Positions 34 through 54,213 are shown, counted from the first letter of the stretch. The stretch: 54,311 nt of DNA from a virus (IMGVR_UViG_3300014501_000541:1-54311); one strand, 5' to 3'. The notes: generated from the sequence alone by a model not told the origin. Translations and numbers: made by a program.

Positions 34-123
34 GGAGAGGTGCGTGAGTGGTTGAAACGATCCGCCTCGAAAGCGGACATACCTTAACGGGTATCGTGGG
101 TTCAAATCCCACCCTCTCCGCCA
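34..123 (+). tRNA. tRNA-Ser (anticodon CGA), integration target
   Basis: Acceptor GGAGAGG/CCTCTCC, discriminator G + CCA, anticodon arm TCCGC-CTCGAAA-GCGGA, long variable arm, T-arm GTGGG-TTCAAAT-CCCAC. Confidence 0.97.
99..123 (+). repeat. attL core GGTTCAAATCCCACCCTCTCCGCCA
   Basis: Identical to 54189-54213; 3' end of tRNA-Ser. Confidence 0.95.
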
Positions 124-138
124 GTATATTTATTGTAT

Positions 139-151
139 TATCAACAACTTA
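139..151 (+). promoter_or_regulatory. IHF-binding site in att arm
   Basis: TATCAACAACTTA matches WATCAANNNNTTR exactly, next to attL. Confidence 0.6.
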
Positions 152-197
152 CAAATTAGTCGTTTCTTCTGTCCTTCTCCTGTACTAAAATCGGGCG

Positions 198-1271
198 ATG
201 CTCACGATTTACCGCAGACATCGCACGACTTGCCCGCACCATTCCCGGCAATACAAGAAGTGTTTTTGCCCGATCTGGGTGCAAGGGCTCCTTGAGGGGA
301 AGCCGGTGCGCCGGTCGCTCGATCTTACGAACTGGGAAGCGGCGAACCGCAAGATCCACGAGCTTGAAGTCCACGGCGATAAGCAAGCGGTTTCGGTAAA
401 GGAAGCCTGCGAGAAATTCAAGGCTGATTGCAAAGCTCGGAATCTGAGCGCCGCGACGATAAAAAAATATAAGTATGTTTTGGGCGAGCTGGACGAAAAG
501 TTCGGGTCGCTTCCGGTGCGGAGCGTTAGCGTCGATGATTTGAGGAGTCTCCGGAGTCGTTGGACGTTCGCCGGTTCTACGACACGGAAACGGGTCGAAT
601 ATTTGCGGGCTTTTTTTGCGTTCTGCGTGGGCGCGGGCTGGATGCCCTTGAATCCGGGAAAACCTCTGAAGCCGCCTAAGCAGGCGCAAGCACCAACACT
701 TCCCTTCTCCGACGCCGAGTGGAAAGATATCGTGACGGCGCTCGGCCTTTACGGCGACATCCATAAACAAAGTCCGCCGGCGATTTGTAAGCAGTTGCGG
801 GCGCTCGTTTTTGTCATGCGCTATTCCGGGCTGCGGATATCGGACGCGGTTTCCCTGAAGCGAGATCGCGTCACGAAAACGAAAGACGGCGGCCGGTTAT
901 TTCTTTACCAGGCAAAGACCGGGCAGCCGGTATGGATTCCGATCGGAAAAGAAGTCATGGACGCGCTCGCGGATTGCGCTGAGGATGGTGCCAATTATTT
1001 CTGGTGCGGCACGGGCACGTTACAGACGACGCAAACGAAGTGGCAGGCGCGGCTCAAGAAAGTGTTTACGATCGCCGGAATTCCGGACGGGCATTCGCAT
1101 CGGTTCCGCGACACGTTCGCGGTTGGCCTGCTTTCAAAGGGTGTGAGTTTGGAGACAGTTTCGACATTACTCGGGCATCAAAATCTCGGGGTCACACAAA
1201 AACATTATTCGCCGTGGGTAAAAAGTCGCCAGGAAGCGCTTGAAGAGGCGGTCAGGAAGACGTGGAAGTAG
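198..1271 (+). CDS. int: Tyrosine recombinase (phage integrase)
   Basis: YSGLRISD (R), HRFR (HxxR), LLGH, HY catalytic motifs; adjacent to attL. Confidence 0.95.
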   Translation: MLTIYRRHRTTCPHHSRQYKKCFCPIWVQGLLEGKPVRRSLDLTNWEAANRKIHELEVHGDKQAVSVKEACEKFKADCKARNLSAATIKKYKYVLGELDEKFGSLPVRSVSVDDLRSLRSRWTFAGSTTRKRVEYLRAFFAFCVGAGWMPLNPGKPLKPPKQAQAPTLPFSDAEWKDIVTALGLYGDIHKQSPPAICKQLRALVFVMRYSGLRISDAVSLKRDRVTKTKDGGRLFLYQAKTGQPVWIPIGKEVMDALADCAEDGANYFWCGTGTLQTTQTKWQARLKKVFTIAGIPDGHSHRFRDTFAVGLLSKGVSLETVSTLLGHQNLGVTQKHYSPWVKSRQEALEEAVRKTWK

Positions 1272-1278
1272 GCGAGGG

Positions 1279-1536
1279 TTAGCTTTTCTTAGTCTTCTTG
1301 TCTCCGGAGTCATCCTCACAAATGATCGATCCGGTAGTGGGTGGCGCATCGGCTATTTGTATCGCCTTTTTTTTCGCTGCTTCCAGGGCGCGGTCCTTAC
1401 CTTTAAATTTTCCGACCCGATGAGGCTGCCCGACGTAAACAATCGTTGTGTCCCATGCATCGTCGCCGAGATCGTTCAAACGAACCTTAAATTTGTGTTT
1501 ACCTGGAGTGATAAGGAAAATTTCCTCGGATGCCAT
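1279..1536 (-). CDS. Hypothetical protein
   Basis: 85-aa ATG ORF filling the gap between integrase and lipoprotein gene. Confidence 0.55.
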   Translation of the reverse strand: MASEEIFLITPGKHKFKVRLNDLGDDAWDTTIVYVGQPHRVGKFKGKDRALEAAKKKAIQIADAPPTTGSIICEDDSGDKKTKKS

Positions 1537-1586
1537 AGGCCGGCATTTTAGCAGCGTTTCGATAAGCTGTGCTACACTGCCGCGCT

Positions 1587-3085: not shown

Positions 3086-3322
3086 CTACGGATTATGCGG
3101 GCTTTTTAGTTTGAAAAGGCTAGAGGCTTGTATGAGGGCGCGGACATCCCTGAAGGCTTCGCGATGCACTTCGATCTGTTGCAAGATGGCAATTTTCTGA
3201 TCGCAGAGTTTTATGGCCTTGCGAAAGAGCCGCGCGCCGACCTTTAGCCCAAGGTCTTCAAGGATGGCAGCCCGGATAGCATAGTCTTGGGCTTCTTGCC
3301 GTTCTTCTTCGATTACGCGCAC
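3086..3322 (-). CDS. Hypothetical protein
   Basis: GTG start with AGGAGG RBS and TATAAT upstream; shorter than the track ORF. Confidence 0.55.
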   Translation of the reverse strand: MRVIEEERQEAQDYAIRAAILEDLGLKVGARLFRKAIKLCDQKIAILQQIEVHREAFRDVRALIQASSLFKLKSPHNP

Positions 3323-3356
3323 GGGAACCTCCTGACGTTGGGAGGAAATTATACCC

Positions 3357-3833
3357 CTATTCTTCCCAGCAATTTTCGCTCGCCGTCCATGGCGCGGTTC
3401 CATACTTGTTAAACAGATATTCTCCAAAAGCGATATTTCCCGAAGCGGTTGCTAGGTCATCGCCCATTTTCGCCGCAAGCGAACCCCATACATAGGTGTT
3501 GATCTGCAAGATTCCTTCATCCCTTTTTATCCGTTCCTTGGTAACAGGGTTTTCTCCCCACAGAATCGAGCCATCGGGCATAAATTGGGTGGGAGTGCCG
3601 GAAACTGATCCGGTTGTTTCGCAGGCAGCGATACGCTCCAAAATGGGGTGTTCGGCAAAGATGTGGTCGGCAACAGAGCTGGATGCCTGTTTCTCGGGCG
3701 ATTCTTGCGTTATAGGCGTACTTTGCGCCTGAGCTGTACCAATGACGTTATAGACCGCCGGACGGGCTAAAATCGGGGTAAAAACGAGGAGAAAGAGAAA
3801 GATGAGAAAGAAAACATAAAATCTTTTAATAAT
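3357..3833 (-). CDS. Membrane-anchored lytic transglycosylase (SLT/lysozyme-like), probable ATT start
   Basis: IAACE catalytic Glu, GILQIN, GTAPW..S..CW motifs; frame open upstream through a hydrophobic N-terminal helix. Confidence 0.75.
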   Translation of the reverse strand: MIKRFYVFFLIFLFLLVFTPILARPAVYNVIGTAQAQSTPITQESPEKQASSSVADHIFAEHPILERIAACETTGSVSGTPTQFMPDGSILWGENPVTKERIKRDEGILQINTYVWGSLAAKMGDDLATASGNIAFGEYLFNKYGTAPWTASENCWEE

Positions 3834-4270
3834 GTTCGCTGGACAGCCAGCCGCCGATTTTTCGGCATCTATCTCGATTTAACGGATAGAAATTGGTTTG
3901 CGACGTTTATGATTCCACTTGCCCACGGCTCCTGCCTCTAGACGACAGGGTTGAACATGGGCGGGGGTATAAGCCCCTCCAACGCCTCTGGCCGAAGCAT
4001 TGGGCGAGGAGAACCACGATTTAAGCGTAACAATCCGGCATGGGAAGTCCAGATGTAATAATCCACAGGGCAAAAGCGTAATACTTCCCCGTAGGCGGGG
4101 TGCCGAGGTCGCAGGTATGGGCTGCTAGACCTAATTACAGAACAAGACCCAATTCTTTTCTCCGCACACTATCCACGAAGGAGAAGTGCGGTCTTTTTTT
4201 TCGCAAAAAAATGCGCCGTTTTGAGAGCCACGGCGCGGGCTGGATGGAAGGAGAGAAGCTGGTTCACTTC

Positions 4271-4483
4271 TCATGGGCAGGGTTCGTGCAGGCGAATCGG
4301 GGGCTGCGTGATCGGGACATGGACATTTTTTCCGTAGTCGGAAAGCGCCCAGCAGCTAAAGTTCAGAGCCACTTTCGTCCCCTGCGGATTTTCGCAGGCG
4401 TGATAGATGCGTGACGTTCGCGCCGTCCGAAGCATGTTCGGGATGACGCGCAAGCACCAGGCGCACGTAACAGGTTCGTTCAT
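4271..4483 (-). CDS. Small Cys-containing hypothetical protein
   Basis: AGGAGG RBS, ATGA coupling, CxxC. Confidence 0.55.
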   Translation of the reverse strand: MNEPVTCAWCLRVIPNMLRTARTSRIYHACENPQGTKVALNFSCWALSDYGKNVHVPITQPPIRLHEPCP

Positions 4484-4656
4484 GCGGCACCTCCTCGGCG
4501 GTACAGTTCAGCGAAGGAAAAGATCTTTACCAAACGGGTTGCGCAGTCCGAACAGACGGCGACGACCACGACGGCCAAATCATTGAAAGCGACGGAGCGG
4601 ACCAAGAGGTCGTCCCCGTCACACTTTTTACAGTTGAGCGTGAACGCCTTTTGCAT
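4480..4656 (-). CDS. Zn-ribbon small protein (58 aa, below ORF-track cutoff)
   Basis: MQKAFTLNCKKC...CSDC; AGGAG RBS; coupled to neighbours. Confidence 0.6.
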   Translation of the reverse strand: MQKAFTLNCKKCDGDDLLVRSVAFNDLAVVVVAVCSDCATRLVKIFSFAELYRRGGAA

Positions 4657-4657
4657 G

Positions 4658-5005
4658 TCAGTCTCCTTTGCTATCTAGCCAATTCGCACATTCCGTGAGA
4701 CCTTTTCGGCGCTGTTTTTGCATCTCTTTTTTCGTGCGGAACGCGCCGCGATACAGCGTATGAACCGCTTCATAACCGTCATTGAAGACGGTGATGCCTT
4801 TGGTTTGCCAATAGCGTTCGCCGGTTTGGGCGTTCTCATAAAGGCCGGAGGTGCATTTGCTCTGCAGGGGAACATGGTTCAGCGTTCCGACAGACGGAGC
4901 AGCGTCAGAAACTCGTCGCGCCGTTTCCTGCGATAGTCCTCGTAAAGGACCAAAAGCAAGAACGGCCAGGGCAACAAGGCATAGAGCAGATAGCGCTTTT
5001 TGCAC
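4658..5005 (-). CDS. Exported hypothetical protein
   Basis: N-terminal signal-like segment; GAGGAGG RBS. Confidence 0.65.
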   Translation of the reverse strand: MQKALSALCLVALAVLAFGPLRGLSQETARRVSDAAPSVGTLNHVPLQSKCTSGLYENAQTGERYWQTKGITVFNDGYEAVHTLYRGAFRTKKEMQKQRRKGLTECANWLDSKGD

Positions 5006-5015
5006 ATGATCCTCC

Positions 5016-5732
5016 TCAGTTGAGCGAAGCGAAGAATTCTCCTAGCTTCGCGGTCGCTTTGAATTGCGGCACGGGGTCGAGTTCTTTGAGCGCCGACGTG
5101 AACGCGTTCGTGAGGCTCCAGAGCGTGCGCGGGGCAAACTCCGGATACTGCGGGTTGAAATAGAGATTGTGGACGGGACGGAGCAGATGCCGGGGCATCG
5201 CAAGGTCGTCGTCCAGGAACGCGTCGTAGATGATGTTTTTCGCGCTACCGTCCGTGAGCTGGTGGCCGCGCCATCCTTCCACTTGCTTCTGCATGGGGGC
5301 GAAGTTACGTTGCATCCGGCCGAGGCCGATGTCGATCGCATCCATGAGGTTGAAGTGTTTGGAGTGCTTGGCGAGGACTGGCGTGAAGTCGCCGTGAAAC
5401 GCCATGTTGTCGCAGACGAACACGCGGTAGCCGACGGTCAACGCTATGCGCATCGACTTGTCGTTTGAGTTGCGGAGCCCGAGCGAGAAGCGGCATCCCT
5501 CAAAGGTTGTTTCGAGGTCGAGGACTCCGAAGAGTTTCATGCCGTCTTCTGACACGGCATATTCATCGCGGACAACGTTGATGTGGCGAAAGGAAAGTCC
5601 TTCAACCACACTATTGACAAGTTCCCGGTGAGCTATGGGCTTATGAGTGTCCGTAGCTTCGGGGGGCAAGATTTCTACGAGCTGGTCGCGGGTAAGCTTG
5701 GAAGCGCCCGCGTGTGCCATTAAACCTTCCAT
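5016..5732 (-). CDS. DUF932-family protein
   Basis: THKPIAH, GLRNSNDKS, GYRVFVCDNMAF, KHS, TLWSLTNAFT motifs. Confidence 0.85.
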   Translation of the reverse strand: MEGLMAHAGASKLTRDQLVEILPPEATDTHKPIAHRELVNSVVEGLSFRHINVVRDEYAVSEDGMKLFGVLDLETTFEGCRFSLGLRNSNDKSMRIALTVGYRVFVCDNMAFHGDFTPVLAKHSKHFNLMDAIDIGLGRMQRNFAPMQKQVEGWRGHQLTDGSAKNIIYDAFLDDDLAMPRHLLRPVHNLYFNPQYPEFAPRTLWSLTNAFTSALKELDPVPQFKATAKLGEFFASLN

Positions 5733-6677: not shown

Positions 6678-7478
6678 TCAATAGTTGAGGAGCTTTGCGC
6701 CGTCGTAGGTTTTCCCGTAGGCGTGAAAGCGGTGTTTGAAGATTCTGATCGTGTGCTCCGTGAAATATCCGTCCGGGAAGATGTAGAAGATGGCGAAGGC
6801 TTGCTGCCAATTGGTGGGGTGACCCTTTAAGTATGCTTGGTCATATCGACAGAGGCAACCGAGAGATTTCCCCACAATGGTTCGGTCATGGCCCCGCTGT
6901 ATCACCGGCATTTCCATTACGTCGTGCGTATGGCCGTAGTAAATGGGATCTCCCCAGTTCTGAACCATTTTTCTTGCGTGGTACTGATTCGTATAGAGAC
7001 CGTGGGTGAAATGGGCTTTGCCGAGCTTGAATTCTTCGCCGTCTTTCCATGAACGAACCCATTTGATCTTCCGCTCCTCAAGCCTGAGCATCTTCTTGTA
7101 GTTAAGGTAGCCGCGAAATTTCTTATATTCGTCTTTGAGCGCCGATTGGTACGCGCGAAAATCGTGGTTGCCTTCTAAGAGCACGAAGCGGGCGTTTCTA
7201 TAGCCCGCTCGCATGATCTTTTGATGCCTATCGAGAAATGTATTCCCGGCCTCGTAACTGTCGTGCAGTTCCGAAGCGACCGAACCTTCTTCACCGAGGT
7301 GATATTTGGAAAGTTCGTCGAAGTCGAGCAAATCGCCAATTTGCAGCCATCCGGTGAAAGGCTCATCGGATGCTTGGGTGTCCATCATGAATTGTTCGAC
7401 GGCGGCTAAGCTTCGGTGATCCTCGAAAGGAATTTGTAGATCAGGAATGATTAGCCATTTCTCGATGGCTTTCTTCAT
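6678..7478 (-). CDS. Calcineurin-like metallophosphoesterase
   Basis: PDLQ, GDLLD, GNHD, THG, GHTH motifs. Confidence 0.85.
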   Translation of the reverse strand: MKKAIEKWLIIPDLQIPFEDHRSLAAVEQFMMDTQASDEPFTGWLQIGDLLDFDELSKYHLGEEGSVASELHDSYEAGNTFLDRHQKIMRAGYRNARFVLLEGNHDFRAYQSALKDEYKKFRGYLNYKKMLRLEERKIKWVRSWKDGEEFKLGKAHFTHGLYTNQYHARKMVQNWGDPIYYGHTHDVMEMPVIQRGHDRTIVGKSLGCLCRYDQAYLKGHPTNWQQAFAIFYIFPDGYFTEHTIRIFKHRFHAYGKTYDGAKLLNY

Positions 7479-7484: not shown

Positions 7485-7724
7485 CTATTGCTGAGGGGGC
7501 TGCGGAGGGACGGGAACGTTTAACGTTTGCGCTTCTTCCGTGAGCCACTTTTCGGCATCGGGAAGGAAGTAACCGAGGATGAGGATGACAAACTGCGCGC
7601 CGTTGAATGTCCAGTGGGTATAAATCTGCTGGACGAAATAGACCGCGCCGATTGCTGCTGCGACGGAGAGGCGTAAGAGCGCTGATTCGACAGCCGCCCA
7701 CACTTTTGTCCAATTTATCTTCAT
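7485..7724 (-). CDS. Holin-like small membrane protein
   Basis: Two hydrophobic segments; directly downstream of the peptidase. Confidence 0.55.
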   Translation of the reverse strand: MKINWTKVWAAVESALLRLSVAAAIGAVYFVQQIYTHWTFNGAQFVILILGYFLPDAEKWLTEEAQTLNVPVPPQPPQQ

Positions 7725-8605
7725 AGAATTTGTTCTACGTCTTCAATAATTTCTTCGACCTTTTCTTCGAGAGATTCTTTTTGCGGGACGGTCGCGTCGC
7801 TTTGCGGGATTTGTTCCGCGACCTGGCTTGCTTGGCTCACAATGGCTTGCAGTTGCGCGAGAGGAACATCGAGCGCCGTGCCGGATTCGTAAAAGAATTC
7901 TGGCGTGATGTATTGCTTGTTAATCATCTTTATTGCGAATGCGGGGTTTGGATCGGCAGAGTCTATGACGCGAATTGAATCGGCAGAGTATCCGTCGGCG
8001 ACCACAAAATGTCCGTCCGTTGGCGTCGTGAAGGTCGGCGTCGCCGTGCCCCAAAATCCGTCGTCGCATTTGATGAGGATCAAGACAGCTTTGTTCTGAT
8101 AGATGGCTTGCTGCAAATCTTCGAACGTGAGGGCGTCGAACGCATAAGAGATTATTTTGTGGTTGGTGGCATCGAGTCCCATGTCTTCGCTCACGACGCT
8201 CGGGTCGCAATAGGTGGGCAGTGAAAGCGTCACGTCGTTTTCAAGTGGCTCATAACTATCTGCGCCGATCATCTTCAACCATGTGAAGATGGCCGTCATC
8301 GTCGTTCCGGCATCAATCGGGAATCCATCATAGACGGATGATTTGGGGTCCTTTATTTTGATCGCGCCGAAACGGGGCGTGAAGCGAGGCGTGGAGCCAT
8401 TGTCCTGATGTTCGAGGATCGCTTTCAAATGGGTTCCGGCATGTTCGCCGCAAAAAGGAGTTTCTCCCTGGAAATTCCTTTGGAGCCAAGAGTTGTCGGG
8501 CAAAAATGTTGCCGGAATGGAAACGGGCGCTTGAACCTTGCCGAGAAGAATGTCGCGTTCATCTTTCGGCCGTGGAAGTGCCCCCAGTTTCGTGCGGTCT
8601 TGCAT
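7721..8605 (-). CDS. Papain-fold cysteine peptidase (candidate endolysin)
   Basis: QG.T..C, GHFVVADGY, VIDS triad pattern; lysis-module position. Confidence 0.65.
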   Translation of the reverse strand: MQDRTKLGALPRPKDERDILLGKVQAPVSIPATFLPDNSWLQRNFQGETPFCGEHAGTHLKAILEHQDNGSTPRFTPRFGAIKIKDPKSSVYDGFPIDAGTTMTAIFTWLKMIGADSYEPLENDVTLSLPTYCDPSVVSEDMGLDATNHKIISYAFDALTFEDLQQAIYQNKAVLILIKCDDGFWGTATPTFTTPTDGHFVVADGYSADSIRVIDSADPNPAFAIKMINKQYITPEFFYESGTALDVPLAQLQAIVSQASQVAEQIPQSDATVPQKESLEEKVEEIIEDVEQIL

Positions 8606-8995: not shown

Positions 8996-10330
8996 TTATG
9001 AGGCGTCCCACACAAAATCAACAGCGTACGCGGTATTATTGGTTGCCCAAGTGAGATAGATATTGGTGGCATCTACCGTGATCGATGCATAGAACTGGCC
9101 ATTGGCGGTTGCGCTATAAAACAGAAGAATATAGCCTGTATTTTGCAATTGGGAAGTACCACTTCCGCTGCTGAACATTTGATAAACGGCTTGGGTGCCG
9201 TTGTACTCGCCGGAGCAAAAACTCCACACGGTGCCTGTGCTAAAGCCTCCGTACATTTTTATATTGGCTGGTGTTCGTCCTAGACCGTGGGCGATGGTTT
9301 GTGATCCGGTCGTACTACGGGTGCCGATTCCATTCGTATGCGTCACAGTGAGTGGCTGGTAGGAGGGATTCGCTCCTGCGCCACCTGTCGTGAGTGCGTA
9401 ACCTGCGGTTCCTGGTGTTAGGAGTACCCATGCGGAGCCGTTGTAATACAGGATGTCGCCTTGCGCGTCGCTGCCGGGATCGAAGATGACAACGCCCGAT
9501 GCGATTTGGGAAGCGGTTGAAATATACGTCCCGCCGAGGAGTGGACGAACATCGTTGTAGATATAGCCCTGGCTCGTCTGTTGATTTTCGTTTTCGTAGA
9601 GTGCGGTTTCACCGACTACGTTATAGAGTTCGCAAATTACTACTTTGCCGGTTGGATAGGTCGGCGCGACGGGTGAAGCGTTTTCGGTTCCCGTCGTCCA
9701 CGCAAGCGTGCCGGAAGAATCGGCTGCGAGCACATCGATGCGGGGATGCGAGCTTGGGGCTGTCACGGTGGGCGTTGAACCTCCTGTGAAAAGAACGCGC
9801 GTCGTGCCCACGAAATAGGTGCCATCTTCGACGTAGAGCTGCATCGTTTGCGCGGTCCAAGTGGCACTTGTCACGGTAATGCCCGTGATATTGAAGCTCG
9901 TGAGTGGGCCAGTCAGACCGTTCACGTTTTTATTCAGCGAAAATGGGACGATATTTGTCGAAGATCCGGGCCATGCCCAGCCGACGTATTCGAGCAACAA
10001 TTGGTTGCCGGCGGAAGCGGCGACTTGGGTCGAGGTTGTGAGATCCGGGCGGCGAAGGAAATTGATGAGATTAGTGGTGAAAGCAAGAGCCGAACCGCCG
10101 ATGAGTACGTTATTCGCGGTTGAGCCGATCGAAGTCACGGCAGTCACGGTGATGGTGGTGCCGTTGATCACGATGGGAACTACCTGGCCGTTCGTAGGCT
10201 CGGTGCCGAGTGCCAAAGTTCCAAGCTGCTGGTGCGCCAAAAGGAAACTGCCGCCGCGAGCGTCATCGCGCCGATCATTGTGATGGGAGGCGAGAACATT
10301 CTGATTATTTTCAATCGGACGAGATTTCAT
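8996..10330 (-). CDS. Tail fibre / tail-tip protein
   Basis: T/G/S-rich, GDILYY..W..L..GT.G and IAHGLGRTP motifs; end of tail module. Confidence 0.7.
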   Translation of the reverse strand: MKSRPIENNQNVLASHHNDRRDDARGGSFLLAHQQLGTLALGTEPTNGQVVPIVINGTTITVTAVTSIGSTANNVLIGGSALAFTTNLINFLRRPDLTTSTQVAASAGNQLLLEYVGWAWPGSSTNIVPFSLNKNVNGLTGPLTSFNITGITVTSATWTAQTMQLYVEDGTYFVGTTRVLFTGGSTPTVTAPSSHPRIDVLAADSSGTLAWTTGTENASPVAPTYPTGKVVICELYNVVGETALYENENQQTSQGYIYNDVRPLLGGTYISTASQIASGVVIFDPGSDAQGDILYYNGSAWVLLTPGTAGYALTTGGAGANPSYQPLTVTHTNGIGTRSTTGSQTIAHGLGRTPANIKMYGGFSTGTVWSFCSGEYNGTQAVYQMFSSGSGTSQLQNTGYILLFYSATANGQFYASITVDATNIYLTWATNNTAYAVDFVWDAS

Positions 10331-10899: not shown

Positions 10900-10912
10900 T
10901 GGAGGGATTACT

Positions 10913-15006: not shown

Positions 15007-15033
15007 GGTGAGGATTTTTGTTTTGTTTTTCGA

Positions 15034-16032: not shown

Positions 16033-16034
16033 GG

Positions 16035-43272: not shown

Positions 43273-44065
43273 TGGATTTCGTAATTGATTTGGTTTCGGC
43301 CTTTATGGGTTCTTTCGAGATCGTGAGTTTAATCTCCGGTGGATAATCTTTTTCCTTGGGCTTACTGTCGGGGTTTGCGTCCGACCAGAACTTTTTCGCG
43401 GCGAGGAACAATGGGAACTTGTCTTCGATGGGCGTAAGCTTCCACCCCGCCTTATTCCGTTTGTAGCCGATCTGAAGGACGAAGATATCTGGGAGATCCG
43501 GGTCGGCGTGTTTCAAGGCGGAAAGCTGTAGCTCGTGGGAGAGATAGATGTCCTTACTCGTTTTTAGGTCAATAATCGTCGGTTTGCCATCCACCGTGAG
43601 CTTCATGTCCCGCGTGCCGGCATAGCCGTACTGTTCGCCCTTGTCCGGGTCAACCCAAACCACTTTTTCCGTATCGATGAGCTGTACCGTGTGGTTCTTG
43701 TTAAGGTCAGTCCAGAAATCAGCGAAGGTCATCACGCCGTAATACTCGTCTGGCGTGAGTTCTTCGTGGTCGCCAGTATCGGGTTTTGCGAAGCCCAGGT
43801 CGAGCGTTATGGTCTGGCCGGCGAGGAGGGCTTCACATGCTTGATGCTGTTTTGACCCGTGTTCTGCCGCTTCCTTTTTGACTGCTTCGGCTTCATCCCA
43901 TCCCTTGTCGGCGTAGTGCTTGAGGAGGCCGATACCCATAGGCGAATAGTGGCCGATCCAGGTAACGGAAGGATTAAACTTGCCGTCCTTCTCATACCAC
44001 CGCTCGTCTAGCGTGGTGATCTGAATGATGCCGTCTTCTTTTGTCTGCCTGATTTCAATTTTCAT
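43208..44065 (-). CDS. PD-(D/E)XK phage exonuclease
   Basis: PSVT, G...H, YAGT.D, IIDLKTS, QLSA. Confidence 0.85.
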   Translation of the reverse strand: MKIEIRQTKEDGIIQITTLDERWYEKDGKFNPSVTWIGHYSPMGIGLLKHYADKGWDEAEAVKKEAAEHGSKQHQACEALLAGQTITLDLGFAKPDTGDHEELTPDEYYGVMTFADFWTDLNKNHTVQLIDTEKVVWVDPDKGEQYGYAGTRDMKLTVDGKPTIIDLKTSKDIYLSHELQLSALKHADPDLPDIFVLQIGYKRNKAGWKLTPIEDKFPLFLAAKKFWSDANPDSKPKEKDYPPEIKLTISKEPIKAETKSITKSNGKGKGNSGKASRPSEAKARN

Positions 44066-44270
44066 GCGTGAGTTCGTCTTCAAAGAGAGGCGACAACTCC
44101 CGCTCTTCCATGTGGAAGGTTTCTATATGGTCTTGCATATCTCTCTCGCAGACCATAGCAGGGCAGAATCCGCACGGGCTTTTATGAAGAGGGTGGACGC
44201 CTGAGATATGCGGCTGCGGCCCGAGCAGATATTCGACGATTGCGTTTGTAATGCGTTCTGATTGTTTCAT
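44055..44270 (-). CDS. Hypothetical protein
   Basis: CGFC..H...H. Confidence 0.5.
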   Translation of the reverse strand: MKQSERITNAIVEYLLGPQPHISGVHPLHKSPCGFCPAMVCERDMQDHIETFHMEERELSPLFEDELTHEN

Positions 44271-46525: not shown

Positions 46526-47086
46526 ATGGGTCTGGAGTTCAAAGAATTGCGTGATCGGGTAAATATCCTGGATGTTTTGGCCCGGCGCGGCATTAAGCTC
46601 CGGCACAAGATGGGATCTGACTATGCTTCGGGGCCGTGTCCGCTCCGGGCGCATCCGAAAGAAGACCGGGGCACGAGCTTCGGCGTCCATCTTCCAACAA
46701 ATCGTTTTCAATGCAAAAACGCAACGTGCCAGAAAGAGAATGGCGTGGGTGACAAGTGGGGAGATTGCATCAATCTGCTCGTGAGTATTGAGGGGATTGG
46801 ATTCAAGGATGCGGCGCGGAAGCTCGATGAGATGTTCCCAAAAGAAAAACCCGCCTCCAATGGAAGCGGGGTGACGGGGTCCCCGCGAGCTTCATCAGTC
46901 GTGGTTTCCCCTGCCAACACATTAGAGGGTAACAATTCCAGTGGTAACGGCAAGGGCTTTATGGCTTCGCTTAGACCGTGGTGGGATGACCTTTTGAAGT
47001 GTGATGACTGGGAAGTGGTACGCAAGGCGGTGTTCGAGAAGATTTACGAGTCGTACAAAAACGGCAAATCCGCCGCTCGGACATGA
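46526..47086 (+). CDS. Stand-alone CHC2 zinc finger (primase Zn-domain) protein
   Basis: CPL..H, F.C....C, GD.I.L...EG..F..A; AGGAGG RBS; no TOPRIM. Confidence 0.8.
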   Translation: MGLEFKELRDRVNILDVLARRGIKLRHKMGSDYASGPCPLRAHPKEDRGTSFGVHLPTNRFQCKNATCQKENGVGDKWGDCINLLVSIEGIGFKDAARKLDEMFPKEKPASNGSGVTGSPRASSVVVSPANTLEGNNSSGNGKGFMASLRPWWDDLLKCDDWEVVRKAVFEKIYESYKNGKSAART

Positions 47087-48152: not shown

Positions 48153-49442
48153 CTAGATACGCAAGGCCTGGGTGATGTGCTTTGCAATTTCGGTCTTTTC
48201 GGTGCCGGTGTTCGCTTTGGCCCATTCGATGGCTTTCCGGGCTGGGATTTCGTCGCCGTGAAGGTTGGGTCGGTCGGTCAGGATTACCGGCGGCGAGAGT
48301 TCGGGGTTGTTGTCGTTCATCGTCCAGGCGACAAATTGGTAGTTGGGAAGTTTCACGAGGGATTCGGCAATATCCTTGTCGCCGAAATTGACGGCGATCT
48401 TTTCAGAGTCATCGCCCGACACCCGGAAGGAAAAGATATGCGAGCAGTTTCCAAAAGCGATGCGGTCGTTAAATATGCGCCGGTCTTCGTCACGCATCTG
48501 CTGGGTGGTCTGCGTGGCGAAAAGGTAATGGATGCCGTACTTGCGCGATTCGGCGAGCATGGTTTCGAAATCAATGCCGTCGGTGAAGTTGTGGATCTCA
48601 TCCACGATGACGAGAAATTGTTTGGCGCGCTTTTTGCGGCGGAACGAAGCGAGATTGAGTTTCGAAAGGATGAGGGAGCCAAGGACTTTCGCCGGCCGCT
48701 CGCCCATGATGCCCTTCGGGACCCGGCACAAAAGGATTTTCTGGCGATCCATAATACGGACAAAGTTCAGGTACTTTTTCTGCGAAAGAAATTCACGGAG
48801 TCCCGGCCGCAAGAGTTCCTCGATCTTGTTCAAAGGATGCGAGAAGTTTTTCGCGCGCTCCTGGGGCTTCAAGTCTTTGAAATATTGCTGGAAGAAGTCC
48901 TGGACGAGCGGGTTTTCGCTCCGGGCGAGTAAGTTTTCAGCGAAGCCCGGCCGGGCGAGGATTTTATAAATATCAATGACGCTAGGATGTTTGGTAAGTT
49001 CGAGCACCGCATCGGTCGCCCCGCGAAGGATATGCGCCGTTTCCGGCCCCCAGCCCTTGCCTGCATGGGCCTCCATCAGACTCATAAACGCCTGTACGGC
49101 GCGTTCTCGGTCAGGATGGTCGAAGATACCGAGGTCGGGCGCGCGGTCGCTTTCCGGGTCGATATAGACGATATCTTTGAGCCGGTACTCCGGGATGTAA
49201 TTCAGGATGTCGAAAATCAAATCGCCGTGCGGGTCGATGACGGCAATGCCGATGTCACTGCGGATCGCTTCGACGATTACGTTGCGAAGGAGGGTCGATT
49301 TGCCGGTGCCGGATTTTCCGAGTAGCCAGCCGTGCCGAAACTGCCTGCGGTCGAGGTCGATGCTAAAGGGTTTTTCGCCGAAATTGGTGAGGGTGGTGCC
49401 GAGGTGGATGTTCATTCGCTGGTGGGGAGGAACGTTCTTCAC
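48153..49442 (-). CDS. VirD4/TraD-like coupling ATPase (no TM anchor)
   Basis: RH..LLGKSGTGKST, VIDPHGDL, VDEIHNF, ESRKYG, ATQ, FRVSG.D. Confidence 0.88.
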   Translation of the reverse strand: MKNVPPHQRMNIHLGTTLTNFGEKPFSIDLDRRQFRHGWLLGKSGTGKSTLLRNVIVEAIRSDIGIAVIDPHGDLIFDILNYIPEYRLKDIVYIDPESDRAPDLGIFDHPDRERAVQAFMSLMEAHAGKGWGPETAHILRGATDAVLELTKHPSVIDIYKILARPGFAENLLARSENPLVQDFFQQYFKDLKPQERAKNFSHPLNKIEELLRPGLREFLSQKKYLNFVRIMDRQKILLCRVPKGIMGERPAKVLGSLILSKLNLASFRRKKRAKQFLVIVDEIHNFTDGIDFETMLAESRKYGIHYLFATQTTQQMRDEDRRIFNDRIAFGNCSHIFSFRVSGDDSEKIAVNFGDKDIAESLVKLPNYQFVAWTMNDNNPELSPPVILTDRPNLHGDEIPARKAIEWAKANTGTEKTEIAKHITQALRI

Positions 49443-49635: not shown

Positions 49636-50298
49636 TTAGGGAATTTCTGGTTTGCCTGCTTCTTTCAACTTTTTGTTAAGGTCCGCTTTTCGCTTGGCGG
49701 TAAGGGCGGGCTGAACAAAATAGAAATCGAAAAGAGATTCCAGTACGTCAAGATTCCATTCGGCTTCGCCCGGTTCGACTGAAACTATGGAGCCTGTTAC
49801 TTTGCTCTTGATTTCATGAGCTGCGAAGTTCCCAATGTTGCGAACGGCGTGTAAGCCGTCCTGAATGTGAGAGGGAATCTTCCCTGCGTTAATCACCTCG
49901 TCAATTTGGTCAAAGAGGTCTTTGTTCTTGGTGGCGGCTTTATCACGGAGAATAGCCTGAAGATTGCGGCGGCTGAGAGCGGCACTAGCTTTAGGGCTAT
50001 CCTGCAGCACCTTACATGCTTCAGTGAAATCTTGCTTATACGGATCTGGAACTTCTGCTGGCACTGGGCGTAGGAAGCCTTGTGGATAGGCCATAAAAAA
50101 CTCCACTCGATCAGCGTACTGACAATCTCGTTTGAGAAAGATTATTGAATTGCCGCATTCTGGACATTGCTGATACTGGGCGATCCATATGCCTGGATAC
50201 GTAGTCCCGCCGGAGGGTAACCTGAGGATTGGTTGGTCAGCTATCTGGCTGGATTTGAAAGCGACGTGAATATTTACGCTACAATGCGGGCACTTCAT
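49636..50298 (-). CDS. DUF4145 domain protein
   Basis: SPKASAALSRR.LQ, L...ID, RNIGNFAAH; N-terminal Zn ribbon. Confidence 0.85.
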   Translation of the reverse strand: MKCPHCSVNIHVAFKSSQIADQPILRLPSGGTTYPGIWIAQYQQCPECGNSIIFLKRDCQYADRVEFFMAYPQGFLRPVPAEVPDPYKQDFTEACKVLQDSPKASAALSRRNLQAILRDKAATKNKDLFDQIDEVINAGKIPSHIQDGLHAVRNIGNFAAHEIKSKVTGSIVSVEPGEAEWNLDVLESLFDFYFVQPALTAKRKADLNKKLKEAGKPEIP

Positions 50299-50713
50299 AG
50301 CCCGGCAATGATATCAAAACGCTGGCCTTCCTAGCGCGTTGTTCTTTTTGTAGCTTTAGAATGCGCCCGCGATTTTTGAAATAATAGACCTTCCGCTTTT
50401 CATTACGCATCCGCCGCAGGCGTTCTGCTTTTTGAACTTTGATGCGATATCGTTTGTTTGCTTCTTGGTGACGCTGCCTGAAGGTCGGATCGTTCTTGTG
50501 CACCAAAGCGTATTGATGGGCTTCGAGGCGATGCTTTTCTTTATCAGCCGACCGTTGCCTTATTCGTTTTAAAGTCCAATACTTTTTGTTTCTTGGCGTT
50601 GTAAGGAGTCTGTCGCCATAGCAGATCGGGCATAAGGGCGAAAGGCTGGCGTTACGTTCTGTCCCACACTTATTGCAAATAGTAGTTGTGGTTGGGGTAT
50701 CGAGGTCCGTCAT
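50279..50713 (-). CDS. Basic Zn-finger hypothetical protein
   Basis: CNKC..CPIC, K/R-rich helix. Confidence 0.55.
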   Translation of the reverse strand: MTDLDTPTTTTICNKCGTERNASLSPLCPICYGDRLLTTPRNKKYWTLKRIRQRSADKEKHRLEAHQYALVHKNDPTFRQRHQEANKRYRIKVQKAERLRRMRNEKRKVYYFKNRGRILKLQKEQRARKASVLISLPGYEVPAL

Positions 50714-51564
50714 CCGGCGCGGAGAAATGAATATGCGACCTTTTGGTAATCTTTTGGCGTGAGGAATGAGAAAGGATCTTGTTCCGTTGAAAACCAGAAA
50801 TTGCTGCGCTTGATCGGTGTGGGATTCACGATGGTGCGGCCGTTGCCGTTGCGATACTCAGTAACCGGCTCGCCCGCTAAGAACTTTAGAATATTCTGCC
50901 GTGCTTCTTCCGTCCTAATCTGCGTAACAACGGTAAAGGTTTTGAAGTCTTTCCACTCGTCTTTGCATTGCTGGGTGCCGTAATACTCTTCGTACCGCTG
51001 ATATTTTTCGAGCAGCTCCTTGAATGACTTGCGCTTGTTCTCCAGCTCGAAAAAGTAGTAGGTGATCTTCCCTTCCCGCTTGATGGCAAAAACGTCGTCT
51101 GGCTTTACCGTGTGGTTGAGGTCGGTCTTCCGCCAAAAGAGTTCCATGTTATGTTGGCGGCACATCTCGACGACTTTCATATGGAACCGGGCGCGTTTGA
51201 TCTCGTGTTCGAGGGTGAGCGGGGAATGGTCTTTGATGAGTTCCTTGGGGTCGGTCCACGCGCAGTTTTCTTGCGCCCAGCACAAGCCTTGGAAGGTCAG
51301 CCCGCAGGCTAGGGGCAAGGTACCGTAGCCAGGATATTCGTCCGGTCGATACGAGATGCGATTTACAAGGCCGTCGCGGTCTAAAGCTGCGAGGCACCGC
51401 CGGAGGGATGCTTCATGGGTTGGGTTCGGCGCGGGATAGAGAAGCGAAACGAGATCTTTGATGGTGAGGCAGTAATACTCTGCGAGCGCTTTAAGAATCC
51501 TCTTCTTGAGGGCGCTTGCGTAGAAGATCTGGATCTTTTGCGTTGTCGTCGGTGTCGCGGACAT
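50710..51564 (-). CDS. Replication-relaxation (Replic_Relax) family protein
   Basis: N-terminal wHTH, LEHE, VKPD, FFELE, K..RY..Y; adjacent to coupling ATPases. Confidence 0.75.
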   Translation of the reverse strand: MSATPTTTQKIQIFYASALKKRILKALAEYYCLTIKDLVSLLYPAPNPTHEASLRRCLAALDRDGLVNRISYRPDEYPGYGTLPLACGLTFQGLCWAQENCAWTDPKELIKDHSPLTLEHEIKRARFHMKVVEMCRQHNMELFWRKTDLNHTVKPDDVFAIKREGKITYYFFELENKRKSFKELLEKYQRYEEYYGTQQCKDEWKDFKTFTVVTQIRTEEARQNILKFLAGEPVTEYRNGNGRTIVNPTPIKRSNFWFSTEQDPFSFLTPKDYQKVAYSFLRAG

Positions 51565-52645
51565 CTTCCTTTGACTTAACCATAGGTTCGGTATCGTTAC
51601 CAGCCGATTTGTCCACAGTGAGTAAGCGGAGTATTTGGGCGTATCTTGCGCGGTTAAGGGGCTTGGGTTTTTTGGTTTTTAGCTCGTAGGTATTTTTTAG
51701 GGTGAAACAGTAGGCGCGGCCTTTCTCCTGGAACGCGACTGTCATCCACATCATGACGAGTTTCTTTTTAATGGGTGCGGGAAGATCGTCGGGCAATTGG
51801 TTCGTCATCGTAAGGCAGAGCTTGTATTTTCGGGCGCGGGTCATGATGGTTTCAAAATCATCGGCGGCGAACTTCAGAATTTCGTGCGCTTCGTCTACGT
51901 AAAGGTAGAAATAGGGACGCTTTGATTCGATTTCGATATCGGCGTTACGCCATACCCCCTGACGGATTTTGGAAACGATGAGGGAAGCAAGGAAGAAATC
52001 GGTAGGGGTGTCTTTGAGGTCTGCGAGAAGGATTTTGCCCGTCTGCACGATGTTAGGGATATCAATCGCATCTTTCGAGCGCTGGAAAAGGGTATGGAGG
52101 GAAGCACGGGCTTGGAATTTGAGCAGCCGGTGGATGGGCGTTTCAAAGTCCTTGGCTTTTGGGAGCGGCCGCCAGGATTCTTGTGTTTCCTCAGAGCACC
52201 GGCCGATTATTTTGCCAGGGTTTTTTACAAAAAGGTCGAGATCGAGAAGGCTAAAGTTCGCACCACTCTTATTTGCTTCCAAAAGCGTGGCGAGCATTTT
52301 ATAAAGCATGGGTTCGCCGACTTTAGCATCCCCAATGTCAAAAATCTTCACCATGTCGTCCATCAAGATTTCTTCTTCGTCTTCGTCGCGGGGCTTCAGG
52401 AATTCAATCGGCCGGATATATTTCCGCTTGGTGGAAAAATAAATAGTGTCTTTGAGGCGATGTTCAGGGAGGCGGGCGATGATAGGAGGCATGAGGTCGG
52501 CGGTGCAGTCAATAACGGCTACGCCACGACCGGCGCAGATGTCTTGCATGATGAGGTGGGTGAGGAGGGAACTTTTGCCGACGCCATGATAGCCGTGGAT
52601 ATACGTGCCGTGCGTCCGCTGGTCGGCATTGAGCTTGAGCTTCAC
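51491..52645 (-). CDS. Second VirD4/TraD-like ATPase
   Basis: HGTYIHGYHGVGKS, VAVID, LYVDEAH, ARKYKL.L.MTNQ. Confidence 0.8.
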   Translation of the reverse strand: MKLKLNADQRTHGTYIHGYHGVGKSSLLTHLIMQDICAGRGVAVIDCTADLMPPIIARLPEHRLKDTIYFSTKRKYIRPIEFLKPRDEDEEEILMDDMVKIFDIGDAKVGEPMLYKMLATLLEANKSGANFSLLDLDLFVKNPGKIIGRCSEETQESWRPLPKAKDFETPIHRLLKFQARASLHTLFQRSKDAIDIPNIVQTGKILLADLKDTPTDFFLASLIVSKIRQGVWRNADIEIESKRPYFYLYVDEAHEILKFAADDFETIMTRARKYKLCLTMTNQLPDDLPAPIKKKLVMMWMTVAFQEKGRAYCFTLKNTYELKTKKPKPLNRARYAQILRLLTVDKSAGNDTEPMVKSKEDVRDTDDNAKDPDLLRKRPQEEDS

Positions 52646-53247
52646 TGAAGTTTTTTAGCATCCCCCAAGTAGACATTCCCTTCGCCGAACTCCACTTCAT
52701 CCGAAGTGGGCTTTTCGACGCGCTCAATCGTGATATCGAGGGCTTCTTCGTAATTCTTGAGGTCGGGATTCGGGTGGCATGCGAGGATTTCTTTCAGTTT
52801 TTGTTCAACGTCGGGCGGCCTGAATTTCCAGCTTCGGAGGCGGTAGGTGATGATGATATCAACCCACGCAAAAACACGGAGCCTTGTTTGCTCCTGCCAG
52901 TCGTCGCGGATCTGTGCATATTCATTTCTCTTATCGAGGAGCTTGTCATGGACGAAAAACATGATGAGAAGAAAAAGCGGGGCTAAAAATAAGAAAGTCC
53001 AACCGTCGGAAACCCAACAGAGCAAGCCAATGAGGATGGCAATAGGAAGCGAAAGGAGTTTGATGGCGTGAGCGTACATCTCACATTTTTCTGCGCGATG
53101 GAGGCTTTGGTACATTTCGAGGAAATCGTGAAAATATACTTTGACAAAAGTTACGACCGCGATAGAGAAAAAAACGACAACGAAATACAGTACGACGATA
53201 ATGGCGCTCATCGTGAAATAGAGGGGGGAATGCCAGAGGTCACTCAT
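52642..53247 (-). CDS. Membrane protein (3 TM) coupled to ATPase
   Basis: Hydrophobic helices; GTGA overlap with next gene. Confidence 0.65.
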   Translation of the reverse strand: MSDLWHSPLYFTMSAIIVVLYFVVVFFSIAVVTFVKVYFHDFLEMYQSLHRAEKCEMYAHAIKLLSLPIAILIGLLCWVSDGWTFLFLAPLFLLIMFFVHDKLLDKRNEYAQIRDDWQEQTRLRVFAWVDIIITYRLRSWKFRPPDVEQKLKEILACHPNPDLKNYEEALDITIERVEKPTSDEVEFGEGNVYLGDAKKLQ

Positions 53248-53623
53248 ACGAGGAGCCGCCCAGTCCTGCCGGTAGGCACTCGATAGAGCAAGCGGAGCGA
53301 CGGGCATCCTGACGCGATAGCCCGATAGGGTCATGTACCGGAACGATAGAGAGGAACATGACGGAAGGATGCCCGTCGGTAGGCGGGGACTGGGCGGCAC
53401 ACCAGTAAGACCAGTTAATACCAGTCTTTGCGCGCCTTTCGGCGCGATTTTTTTCGGTAGCTATAAAGAACATATGGCGATACCGAATAAAGCGGGCATA
53501 TAATACCACAACCTCAACCCGAAAGGGTTGGGGGATTACAGGCGTTGCGCTCCTAGAGCGATAGCGTCTGCGCTTCTCATTAGCTTCCCGATAGGGAAGG
53601 GGAATTCACACTTGGAGACAGGT

Positions 53624-53833
53624 ATGGAGTCCAATGAGAAGTGGTGGTCTATCAGTGAAGTCGCATTTCGTTATCGGGTGAGCCGGGACACGATTATCCG
53701 GCGCGTCGAGGCTGGTTTTCTGAAGGCGCTCGTCATGCCTCGTATGGGGCGAAGGGGGACGCGGGTTTATAAGACCCGCTTAATCTCAGAGAGCGAACTT
53801 CGTCGGTTCGAGCGCGGGAATACGACTTCGTGA
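53624..53833 (+). CDS. Excisionase-like HTH protein
   Basis: SISEVA.R..VSRDTI.R...G.L.A, ISESEL.RF; near attR; GGAG RBS. Confidence 0.8.
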   Translation: MESNEKWWSISEVAFRYRVSRDTIIRRVEAGFLKALVMPRMGRRGTRVYKTRLISESELRRFERGNTTS

Positions 53834-53885
53834 GGCCGAGGCCGGAGGACGGGAATCCTTCCGGCCTTTTTCTTGGGGGGGGCGC

Positions 53886-54086
53886 GTGGAATCTGGGTTT
53901 AGGGTGCGACAGGTCGGTAGTGGGCCGGAGTTATTTGTAACGGAGTGGGTGGAAAACGAGAATCCCGGAAGGCCTAGTGCGACGATGACAGAAGGGGAAT
54001 TGCGGCAAGCTCTCCGCAAGACGAATCGGTCGGAGTTTGTGATCGATGAGATGATCGAAAGCGCGCGGAAGAGATATCAGTCGTAA
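53886..54086 (+). CDS. Hypothetical protein
   Basis: 66-aa ORF before attR. Confidence 0.4.
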   Translation: MESGFRVRQVGSGPELFVTEWVENENPGRPSATMTEGELRQALRKTNRSEFVIDEMIESARKRYQS

Positions 54087-54188
54087 TGCGTGTACCTGTG
54101 GCGTACTTCAGAACCGCGTTTTCGGCGTTTTTCGATTTTTGAGATTCCTTAATTTTCAGTAACTTGCCTGTTATCAGTACGCCATTTT

Positions 54189-54213
54189 GGTTCAAATCCC
54201 ACCCTCTCCGCCA
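54189..54213 (+). repeat. attR core (duplicated tRNA 3' end)
   Basis: 25-bp exact match to 99-123. Confidence 0.95.

Follow-up and report, generated by a model that had tools for sequence, protein, structure and literature searches.

The 54,311-bp virus contig IMGVR_UViG_3300014501_000541 (referred to here as the window, that is, the whole stretch of DNA analyzed) raises the question of which cells its virus inhabits. The initial annotation, made from the sequence alone, described an element of two lineages, a phage backbone like those of Patescibacteria (the candidate phyla radiation, or CPR) in a chromosome like those of Acidobacteria, and proposed that the virus replicates in an ultrasmall episymbiont but lysogenizes the cell that carries it, or shuttles between the two. 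Our analysis revealed that both phyletic affinities are real and beyond chance. However, the conclusion of a dual host or shuttle overreaches, and we found no support for it. The window carries a temperate siphovirus-type prophage of Acidobacteriaceae, and its mixed look probably goes back to an old switch of the lineage between hosts of different phyla.

The prophage itself occupies 54,090 bp between attL and attR, and its borders are marked by the following features.

34-123, + strand: host tRNA-Ser(CGA), the sole tRNA found by ARAGORN, whose 3′ end is the attachment core
99-123, no strand: attL core of 25 nt, an exact direct repeat equal to the last 25 nt of tRNA-Ser(CGA)
54189-54213, no strand: attR core of 25 nt, an exact direct repeat of 99-123
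198-1271, + strand: tyrosine integrase (PF00589, E 1.4e-17)
53624-53833, + strand: excisionase-type helix-turn-helix candidate by attR (PF12728 HTH_17, E 4.7e-5, 24 bits, under the 27-bit cutoff)

The integrase gene starts 75 nt past the tRNA gene, and the opposite end of the element carries a repeat of the 3′ end of this tRNA. Presumably, the integrase acted on a phage site and the final 25 nt of tRNA-Ser(CGA), and recombination between them would have rebuilt the tRNA at attL and left a second copy of these nucleotides at attR. The gene content is that of a temperate member of the Caudoviricetes with an HK97-fold capsid and a siphovirus-type tail, including the large terminase subunit (TerL), portal, capsid, tail tube, and tape measure. 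In 50 Pfam and 20 PHROG protein scans, which covered the small open reading frames (ORFs) only in part, no hit was to a contractile sheath family. All hallmark genes are open and align with their relatives over the full length, and the GC content is even across the window (0.47 to 0.57 in 2-kb windows). Collectively, these data describe an intact-looking temperate siphovirus-type prophage.

Host DNA amounts to only ~100 bp on each side of the element. Positions 1-123, comprising the left flank and the tRNA, match 139 of the 151 sampled genomes of the family of genome G002, which is recorded as Acidobacteriaceae (this tally and the host-family tally of 2/151 take in genomes G007 and G030). The tRNA-Ser is 100% identical in several genomes of this family, and the GCTGA-rich upstream flank is 91 to 95% identical in three of them (G016, G104, and G106), while in five Patescibacteria-sized genomes the tRNA reaches an identity of only 73 to 78%. 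Because tRNA and flank are 91 to 100% identical in the former and 73 to 78% in the CPR-sized genomes, the host is, judged by this flank, an Acidobacteriaceae bacterium of peat or permafrost soil and not a CPR organism. The runs in which the window occurs are from peat and permafrost, and contigs of three more peat runs, produced in other studies and distinct from the probable source run, contain pieces identical to it. Neither integration of the phage in a Patescibacteria genome nor, in a test of low sensitivity on 300 CPR genomes, a spacer link to one was found. As a separate observation, several Acidobacteriaceae genomes contain additional, partial copies of tRNA-Ser that comprise its 5′ half alone (query positions 32 to 73, 95 to 100% identical) at 100 to 300 bp from the full gene, for example at G103:C77:12154-12195, G028:C55:653-831, and G025:C87:27777-27817; integration at the 3′ end gives no explanation for them.

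The affinity of the phage, as opposed to that of its host, was read primarily from the virion genes, which lie in one module.

7721-8605, − strand: papain-like cysteine peptidase, just downstream of the tail genes and fiber candidate (weak PF13529)
8996-10330, − strand: T/S/G-rich tail fiber or receptor-binding candidate, assigned because it follows the tail genes (no hit in Pfam or PHROG)
10333-11061 and 10913-12427, − strand: two distal tail proteins (weak phrog_400 tail protein)
12429-14135, − strand: tape measure (phrog_28, E 3.6e-21, plus 17 other families)
15034-16032, − strand: tail tube (PF18906, E 1.5e-14)
16308-16802, 16774-17244 (gp10-like), 17250-18125 (gp6-like), and 18570-19028, − strand: head-tail joining genes (PF04883, PF05135; HK97 gp10/gp6)
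19189-20418, − strand: HK97-fold major capsid protein (PF05065, E 3.3e-25)
20440-22089, − strand: head gene in the scaffold or protease position (no family hit)
22034-29421, − strand: clade-specific head-module block including a 1528-aa ORF at 24265-28851 (no Pfam or PHROG hit)
29425-31731, − strand: portal fused to a MuF-like domain (PF04860, E 4.4e-54; PF04233, E 1.7e-11)
32819-34270, − strand: TerL (phrog_38, E 5.9e-71)
34230-34757, − strand: small terminase (TerS) candidate, from its position upstream of TerL (no family hit)

By TerL, the nearest relatives are prophages of Acidobacteriota. Of 50 IMG/VR relatives, 34 share 75 to 87% TerL identity with the window. A scan of one genome per species with only two peptide patterns yielded 51 TerL loci, 14 of them at 75% or above, and 13 of these 14 are labeled Acidobacteriota (Terracidiphilus, Acidobacterium, Acidobacteriaceae, Solibacteraceae, and Terriglobia; several on contigs of 0.66 to 2.09 Mb). 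Every locus at this level of identity, 14 from genomes and 34 from IMG/VR, has a GC content of 52 to 61% and no low-GC stretch. The window TerL falls in a fully supported clade with prophages from Acidobacteriota metagenome-assembled genomes (MAGs), and 37 of the 85 window ORFs, among them the integrase, DUF932, single-stranded DNA-binding protein (SSB), VirD4-like, and Replic_Relax genes, have homologues in Acidobacteriota relatives. Three of the genome prophages (G001:C25, G002:C14, and G003:C2 at 2.04 to 2.09 Mb) and the IMG/VR loci L001 to L028 resemble the window in TerL (75 to 90%), in a collinear virion module (54 to 85%), and in carrying DUF932 (67 to 70%), SSB, VirD4-like, Replic_Relax, CHC2, and tyrosine integrase genes. 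They differ from it in their attachment sites (tmRNA and tRNA-Phe) and in their integrases, which are merely 38 to 47% identical. In addition, G001:C25 lacks the 22034-29421 block, and the prophage of G002 is decaying, with 4 TGA and 2 TAA stops in its capsid gene (G002:C14:525153-526379). The core virion proteins find their best matches, at 54 to 87%, in prophages on Acidobacteriota contigs. On the evidence of TerL and gene order, the window is one member of an established and diversified clade of Acidobacteriota prophages. At E≤1e-60, TerL of this family was detected in just 1/150 other genomes of the host family. Cultured phages are far more distant: all 442 records compared with TerL are below 60% identity, those listed being at 23 to 28%, and the best match, from the Haemophilus phage SuMu with its Mu-like terminase, covers 95% of the query at an identity of only 27.6%. 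Unlike Mu-like phages, the window has no transposase-type replication genes.

The Patescibacteria side of the kinship was assessed by local tblastn searches with the 85 window ORFs, a CPR match being defined by E≤1e-5 and a coverage of at least 40%. CPR-labeled DNA was matched by 17 of the ORFs. Fourteen of them are virion ORFs in the same order, namely, the TerS candidate, TerL, portal, the 20440 gene, capsid, the four head-tail connectors, tube, ORF 14710-15006, the two distal tail proteins, and the peptidase; the remaining three are SSB and ORFs 40155-40538 and 41312-41608. In integrated CPR elements, the identities are 61% for TerL, 53% for the capsid, and 50% for the tube. The element itself is an ordinary temperate phage, and what is unusual is this kinship across phyla, in which TerL and a whole ordered module are shared. 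Nonetheless, 16 of the 17 CPR-matching ORFs are best matched in Acidobacteriota-labeled contigs, in G001:C25, or in IMG/VR kin, and not in CPR, which is the outcome that the initial annotation had named as refuting its proposal.

The tail tube is 67% identical to Acidobacterial, 52% to Alphaproteobacterial, and 46 to 50% to CPR homologues (best segment, 64%), and the capsid is 66 to 71% identical in G001 and G003 versus 53 to 55% in the CPR genomes G004, G750, and G749. The 20440-22089 gene is matched at 59 to 76% in Acidobacterial prophages and partially, at 43 to 46%, in CPR prophages, and the corresponding values for the TerS candidate are 63 to 67% and 25 to 37%. For the two distal tail proteins, we found 41% and 33% identity to G004:C8 and 44 to 67% to the Acidobacterial and Alphaproteobacterial relatives. 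CPR homologues exist for all four head-tail joining genes (35 to 50%), while matches to the tape measure in CPR loci cover just 19 to 30% of its length, and it therefore stands outside the count of 17. The fiber candidate has partial matches of 56 to 68% in Acidobacterial and Alphaproteobacterial relatives and no homologue in the CPR loci compared. The 7.4-kb block between the portal-MuF gene and the 20440 gene has homologues in many IMG/VR and Acidobacteriota relatives only, with no counterpart in the CPR loci or in G001:C25; for its 1528-aa ORF, an Atlas search gave only viral fiber-like leads below 0.9 (C1q, Mtd_N, and head fiber).

The pattern scan added 21 further CPR-labeled TerL loci at 37 to 61%. 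The relevant CPR prophages (G004:C8, labeled Tayloriibacteriota, G750:C1, and G749:C31, with loci L059 to L070) share with the window a syntenic stretch from TerS to the distal tail at 25 to 61%, a tyrosine integrase, and a paucity of Shine-Dalgarno (SD) motifs; they differ from it in host phylum and in GC content (0.41 to 0.48 versus 0.52). The prophage G004:C8 is truly integrated, in a genome of 0.7 Mb, and has an integrase at 4006-5013 and methylases and AAA_24 near the other end. The genes beyond that end encode GAPDH, a ZIP transporter, and an S41 peptidase, and it forms an island of 0.41 to 0.47 GC between flanks of 0.31 to 0.37. The prophages of this family in Patescibacteria (G004:C8, 4 to 49 kb; G750:C1, 135 to 160 kb; G749:C31, 30 to 56 kb) have GC contents 4 to 10 points above those of their host flanks. 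Usually, the GC content of a phage lies below that of its host, which is the opposite pattern. Another side observation concerns the closed 882-kb chromosome G005:C1 (52% GC), where an orphan TerL (50%) of this family lies at ~106 to 128 kb (L073) and the module's other virion genes are all absent within 80 kb of it.

To quantify how typical the TerL family is of each phylum, six-frame searches were run at one threshold (E≤1e-60), which made them free of the pattern bias. The family was present in 27/300 other Patescibacteria (35 to 42% identity), 1/300 other Acidobacteriota, and 0/300 other Pseudomonadota (Fisher P values of 1e-7 and 8e-9). Patescibacteria thus carry it about thirty times as often as Acidobacteriota do, and none of the 300 Pseudomonadota yielded it, so that the hallmark genes of the window, by TerL prevalence and by the syntenic virion module, belong to families typical of CPR prophages.

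Such kinship could in principle be an artifact of misbinned or mislabeled contigs or of a chimeric window, and one locus demonstrates that labels can fail. L051 (which is G001:C25), the fourteenth TerL locus at 75% or above, is labeled "Patescibacteria group." However, it lies on a 110-kb contig of a 3.3-Mb bin with 60% GC, and its gpmI is 58 to 63% identical to that of three Acidobacteriaceae genomes versus 41% to that of a CPR-sized genome. Because of the bin size, the GC content, and the Acidobacteria-like gpmI, its label is, on this comparison, not credible, and either label or bin looks wrong; it could mislead host predictions for the phage clade. The remaining CPR matches are of a different kind, as they lie deep in large contigs of 0.5- to 1.2-Mb genomes (e.g., G271:C1 of 656 kb and G171:C1 of 763 kb), and G004:C8 has low-GC housekeeping flanks on both sides. 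As for the window, contigs of runs X2 and X3 span the cargo/backbone border at 7.5 to 7.7 kb with 0 differences, and contigs of X2 and X4 span attL. Because the architecture recurs in G001:C25, G002:C14, and G003:C2 and contigs from other peat runs bridge the border, misassembly of the window, which the initial annotation had named as a point to check, is excluded. An artifactual origin of the CPR kinship as a whole is extremely improbable. In X2 and X4, position 9973 also appeared joined to 12805 through five different letters, a connection that rests on matches of ~20 nt.

If the kinship is real, it might reflect a present-day virus with two hosts, which lysogenizes Acidobacteriaceae and also replicates in, or shuttles to, attached Patescibacteria episymbionts. 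There is precedent for such a link. According to passages of a report whose own abstract presents the first CPR-targeting phage, described in 2026, prophage Xhp1 of Schaalia odontolytica XH001 binds and, to a limited degree, infects the CPR episymbiont TM7x (PMC13578794), and passages of another study describe 23 predicted CPR phages for which bacteria outside the CPR carry targeting spacers as well (PMC10746230). Xhp1 resembles the prophage of the window in being temperate, in residing in a host outside the CPR, and in being linked to Patescibacteria. Its link is experimental, through binding and limited infection, whereas that of the window consists of shared gene ancestry, and we liken the two by description, not by sequence. 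Two features that would fit such a virus are real as well, namely, the relatedness of the virion module to CPR prophages and the leaders poor in SD motifs, which the CPR relatives have too.

The other evidence speaks against two present-day hosts. On credible CPR contigs, TerL identity to the window goes no higher than 61%, and the credible loci at 75% or above are all Acidobacteriota, so that no near-identical phage was found in, or acting on, both cell types. The receptor-binding candidate is without a CPR homologue. The nearest CPR relatives carry isolate names of lake and groundwater, and the window comes from peat and permafrost runs. A spacer-like match to positions 14300-34270 was absent from 300 Patescibacteria genomes in a weak test that scored two candidates per genome, the only matches being the capsid and TerL genes of G004 itself (68 to 69%). 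Furthermore, the genes shared with CPR are compositionally the most Acidobacteria-like of the element. The shared virion genes have its highest GC (0.544) and third-position GC (0.646 versus 0.585 in the rest), and their tetranucleotide composition correlates with that of Acidobacterial flanks at r values of 0.77 to 0.78, with CPR prophages at 0.34 to 0.49, and with CPR host DNA at −0.08 to 0.13. This is the opposite of the trace expected from ongoing replication in low-GC cells. We consider a virus that presently uses both cell types very unlikely.

The alternative closest to the preferred host switch is that a resident Acidobacteria phage took only the virion module from a Patescibacteria-type phage, making the prophage a true mosaic of two lineages. 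This explanation hinges on the genes outside the virion module.

1587-2084, + strand: predicted lipoprotein with the lipobox LLSAC, beside the integrase (lipobox scan; no Pfam hit)
3089-5732, − strand: SD-led accessory operon of DUF932 (5016-5732; PF06067, E 2e-6) followed by ORFs starting at 5005, 4483, and 3322
6678-7478, − strand: metallophosphoesterase (phrog_221, E 1.3e-35)
32224-32880, + strand: SD-led accessory ORF of 218 aa on the opposite strand (SD ggagg; no Pfam hit)
38619-39197, + strand: SD-led membrane protein (weak Pfam hits below the cutoff only)
39160-39630, − strand: NinG-like protein (PF05766, E 4.1e-13)
42110-42592, − strand: SSB (PF00436, E 1.6e-34)
43208-44083, − strand: exonuclease (phrog_298, E 5.2e-22)
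46526-47086, + strand: SD-led CHC2 zinc-finger (primase-type) protein (PF01807, E 1.3e-6)
48153-49442, − strand: VirD4/TrwB-like ATPase, short form, 429 aa (PF10412, PF02534, PF12696)
49636-50298, − strand: DUF4145 protein (PF13643, E 1.1e-18)
50710-52645, − strand: Replic_Relax protein (50710-51564; PF13814, E 5.2e-12) and AAA ATPase (51491-52645; phrog_5156, E 2.9e-17)

In favor of such a capture, the three closest CPR prophages (G004, G750, and G749) share with the window the TerS-to-tail genes only, and they have none of its lysogeny and replication genes, no homologue of the fiber candidate, and no 1528-aa block. The integrase, DUF932, Replic_Relax, and the 22034-29421 block have no CPR match in the DNA compared. 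For the integrase and DUF932, as for the GCTGA flank, the Acidobacterial affinity recognized in the initial annotation holds, and it extends to the tRNA: the integrase is 81% identical to that of L095, a Terriglobia MAG, and 38 to 47% to those of related Acidobacterial prophages, and DUF932 is 67 to 71% identical in Acidobacterial relatives and 28 to 32% in Alphaproteobacterial ones, with no homologue in CPR loci. On the other hand, SSB, the exonuclease (34%, in L085), and ORFs 40155-40538 and 41312-41608 are matched at 34 to 40% in the more distant CPR loci L082, L083, and L085, and SSB scores higher against the chromosomal SSBs of three CPR genomes (105 to 117 bits) than against those of two Acidobacteriaceae (71 to 76 bits). 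Moreover, replication modules turn over fast in temperate phages, and their absence from three relatives is therefore weak evidence. Taken together, we regard a capture of the module by recombination as unlikely, though it is the most serious competitor of the host switch.

The VirD4-like ATPase, which had been counted with the CPR-like backbone, bears on the same question. ORF 48153-49442 passes the TrwB/TraG domain cutoffs (PF10412, 34.2 bits against 20.5; PF02534, 29.6 against 20.1; PF12696, 29.1 against 22), and the family hits of the window proteins included no other type IV secretion genes. At E≤1e-30, this family is present in 148/150 other Patescibacteria versus 5/150 other Acidobacteriota, the counts over all sampled genomes being 149/151 and 6/151, and is rare on plasmids (71/72,556 records) and phages (1/50,697), with bit scores of up to 195 in CPR, up to 136 on plasmids, and 70 for the single phage hit. 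The CPR reading frames are 424 to 1191 aa long versus 429 aa in the window. Derivation of the ATPase from CPR was nevertheless rejected, since the phage copies form a long-branched clade of their own that is not nested in CPR, in a tree whose deep nodes are not resolved; this separate clade is also what module capture would predict. The CPR-like character of the backbone thus holds for the virion module, the TerL family, the VirD4-like family, and, weakly, SSB, and does not extend to a CPR descent of the ATPase. Patescibacteria usually have two copies of the VirD4/TrwB-like ATPase, in frames of ~500 to 1100 aa and often a few kb apart (e.g., G254:C1:111079-112155).

A third phylum shares in this kinship. 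Seven TerL loci labeled Alphaproteobacteria were found in the pattern scan at 40 to 52%, and Alphaproteobacterial MAG prophages (G746, labeled Xanthobacteraceae, L071, and L075) form the sister clade of the window's clade in the TerL tree with 98% support. They resemble the window in the tube (52%), capsid (53%), portal (44%), fiber candidate (56%, partial), and a DUF932 gene, and differ from it in a TerL of only 51% identity and in an SD use equal to that of the host flank. For most virion proteins, identity to these relatives equals or exceeds that to the CPR ones; therefore, the module spans three phyla and does not link two partners. When the TerL tree is rooted on the outgroups, its basal branches are a grade of CPR sequences, from within which the clade of Acidobacterial and Alphaproteobacterial prophages arises. 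The nested tree and the greater diversity and prevalence in CPR favor a CPR origin, as far as these sequences indicate.

These data are consistent with the following course of events. The Acidobacteriota clade and its Alphaproteobacterial sister branch would derive from a family, defined by TerL and the syntenic TerS-to-tail module, whose main reservoir among the sampled phyla appears to be Patescibacteria. The lineage would have switched host across phyla long ago, and its GC and oligonucleotide makeup would then have adjusted to the new host. After the switch, it may have gained a local integrase, the receptor-binding candidate, the head block specific to its clade, and a handful of accessory genes led by SD motifs. 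The data show the anatomy, the host, the homologies, and the prevalence directly; from these we infer an old host switch that could have run in either direction; it is considered old because the nearest CPR TerL is at 61%, versus 75 to 90% inside the clade.

Several points weigh against this reconstruction. The approximately unbiased test fails to reject CPR monophyly (lnL difference of 4.85, P = 0.41), and the outgroup branches are very long. Because the three CPR prophages nearest to the window share the virion module only, there is room for module capture at the probability given above. The two-pattern census could miss relatives in other phyla, only three phyla having been sampled without that bias, and the taxon labels are those of the MAG depositors, of which the one of L051 proved unreliable. 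In six Acidobacteriaceae loci, the DNA next to the tRNA did not include the right host flank (54214-54311). Runs X1, X3, and X4 have contig ends that depart from the tRNA at 124-127; these are unlike that flank, and no empty site was seen among these contigs, which drop rare forms. Finally, by a crude rule that takes the longest ORF as start, SD use is below that of the host flanks both in Acidobacterial prophages (25/223 versus 18/69, P = 0.006) and in CPR prophages (6/97 versus 16/113, P = 0.07), while an Alphaproteobacterial relative shows no difference (9/43 versus 7/30). The low SD use of the lineage is real, and a host switch does not explain it.

The SD motifs had also been read as separating backbone from cargo. 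The seven strong sites (3322, 4483, 5005, 5732, 32224, 38619, and 46526) and the A/C-rich leaders at 16032 and 22570 are as described. However, SD motifs precede 1/19 CPR-shared ORFs and 8/66 others (Fisher P = 0.68; crude counts that take the longest ORF as start), and most genes of every class lack them, so that SD as a marker of gene class was rejected. The strong motifs belong to a few accessory genes, namely, the DUF932 operon and those at 32224, 38619, 39160-39630, and 46526. In the window and in G001, G002, G003, G004, G749, and G750, the leaders are A/C-rich and G-poor, and SD motifs occur at 6 to 12% of ORF starts, about half of the host-flank rate.

A further variant of the host switch supposes that the lineage crossed the interface between Patescibacteria episymbionts and their carrier cells, that is, that it underwent its diversification in Patescibacteria and then reached Acidobacteriaceae and soil Alphaproteobacteria because virions set free in the contact zone encounter both surfaces. 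Present-day members with SD-independent leaders might then, like Xhp1, still be able to adsorb to both partners or inject into them. We consider this variant rather doubtful, less probable even than module capture. If it were true, the sharing of this phage family would suggest that Patescibacteria of peat and soil have Acidobacteriaceae as their hosts. To our knowledge, the hosts of soil Patescibacteria are largely unknown, and experimentally established links between Patescibacteria and their phages are almost unknown as well. Our literature searches, which covered titles and abstract openings, returned no report of an Acidobacteria-Patescibacteria phage lineage, and the passages available from two related articles do not mention Acidobacteria (PMC12911398 and PMC13059738). 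A phage family distributed over Patescibacteria, Acidobacteriaceae, and soil Alphaproteobacteria offers a concrete case in which to date and orient a cross-phylum host switch. The same family could serve to test whether episymbiosis promotes such switches and suggests candidate partner pairs for coculture.

Other parts of the earlier description concerned single proteins. All of the sequences quoted there are present, i.e., the integrase N terminus, PTLSELIEAC (36273-36302), AIEGGW (40494-40511), and the SSB tail (...EDDEIKPEDIPF). The AIEGGW protein, ORF 40155-40538, indeed matches CPR-labeled DNA, whereas the PTLSELIEAC protein, ORF 36060-36386, has no CPR match in the DNA compared and could not be upheld as CPR-like. 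PDB sequence searches with ORFs 7721-8605, 34875-35840, and 37444-38133 gave nothing usable. The lipoprotein at 1587-2084 has a 55% homologue in the same place in the G002:C14 prophage and is a candidate gene for lysogenic conversion or exclusion.

The Pfam and PHROG scans revealed no SLT domain, so that the reported SLT protein was not recovered, and no endolysin family. As noted before, no spanin pair is seen, although no rigorous search was made for one, and the lipobox scan gave only the lipoprotein 1587-2084. The enzyme that can be named is the product of ORF 7721-8605. Its AlphaFold model (pLDDT of 89.8) retrieved xylellain (3ois) as the top Foldseek hit (E 1e-12, probability 1.0), followed by cathepsins. 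In an alignment of 35 sequences, C52 is nearly invariant (conserved in at least 90%) and H199 and D215 are invariant, so that the papain fold is accompanied by a conserved Cys/His/Asp set. Homologues of the protein number 133 in metagenomes, and the CPR prophage G004:C8 contains a 26% match. On the basis of the model, it is a candidate lysis, penetration, or virion-associated enzyme, the only one nameable in the window. A papain-fold peptidase placed right after a tail fiber candidate is unusual as a phage lysis or tail enzyme.

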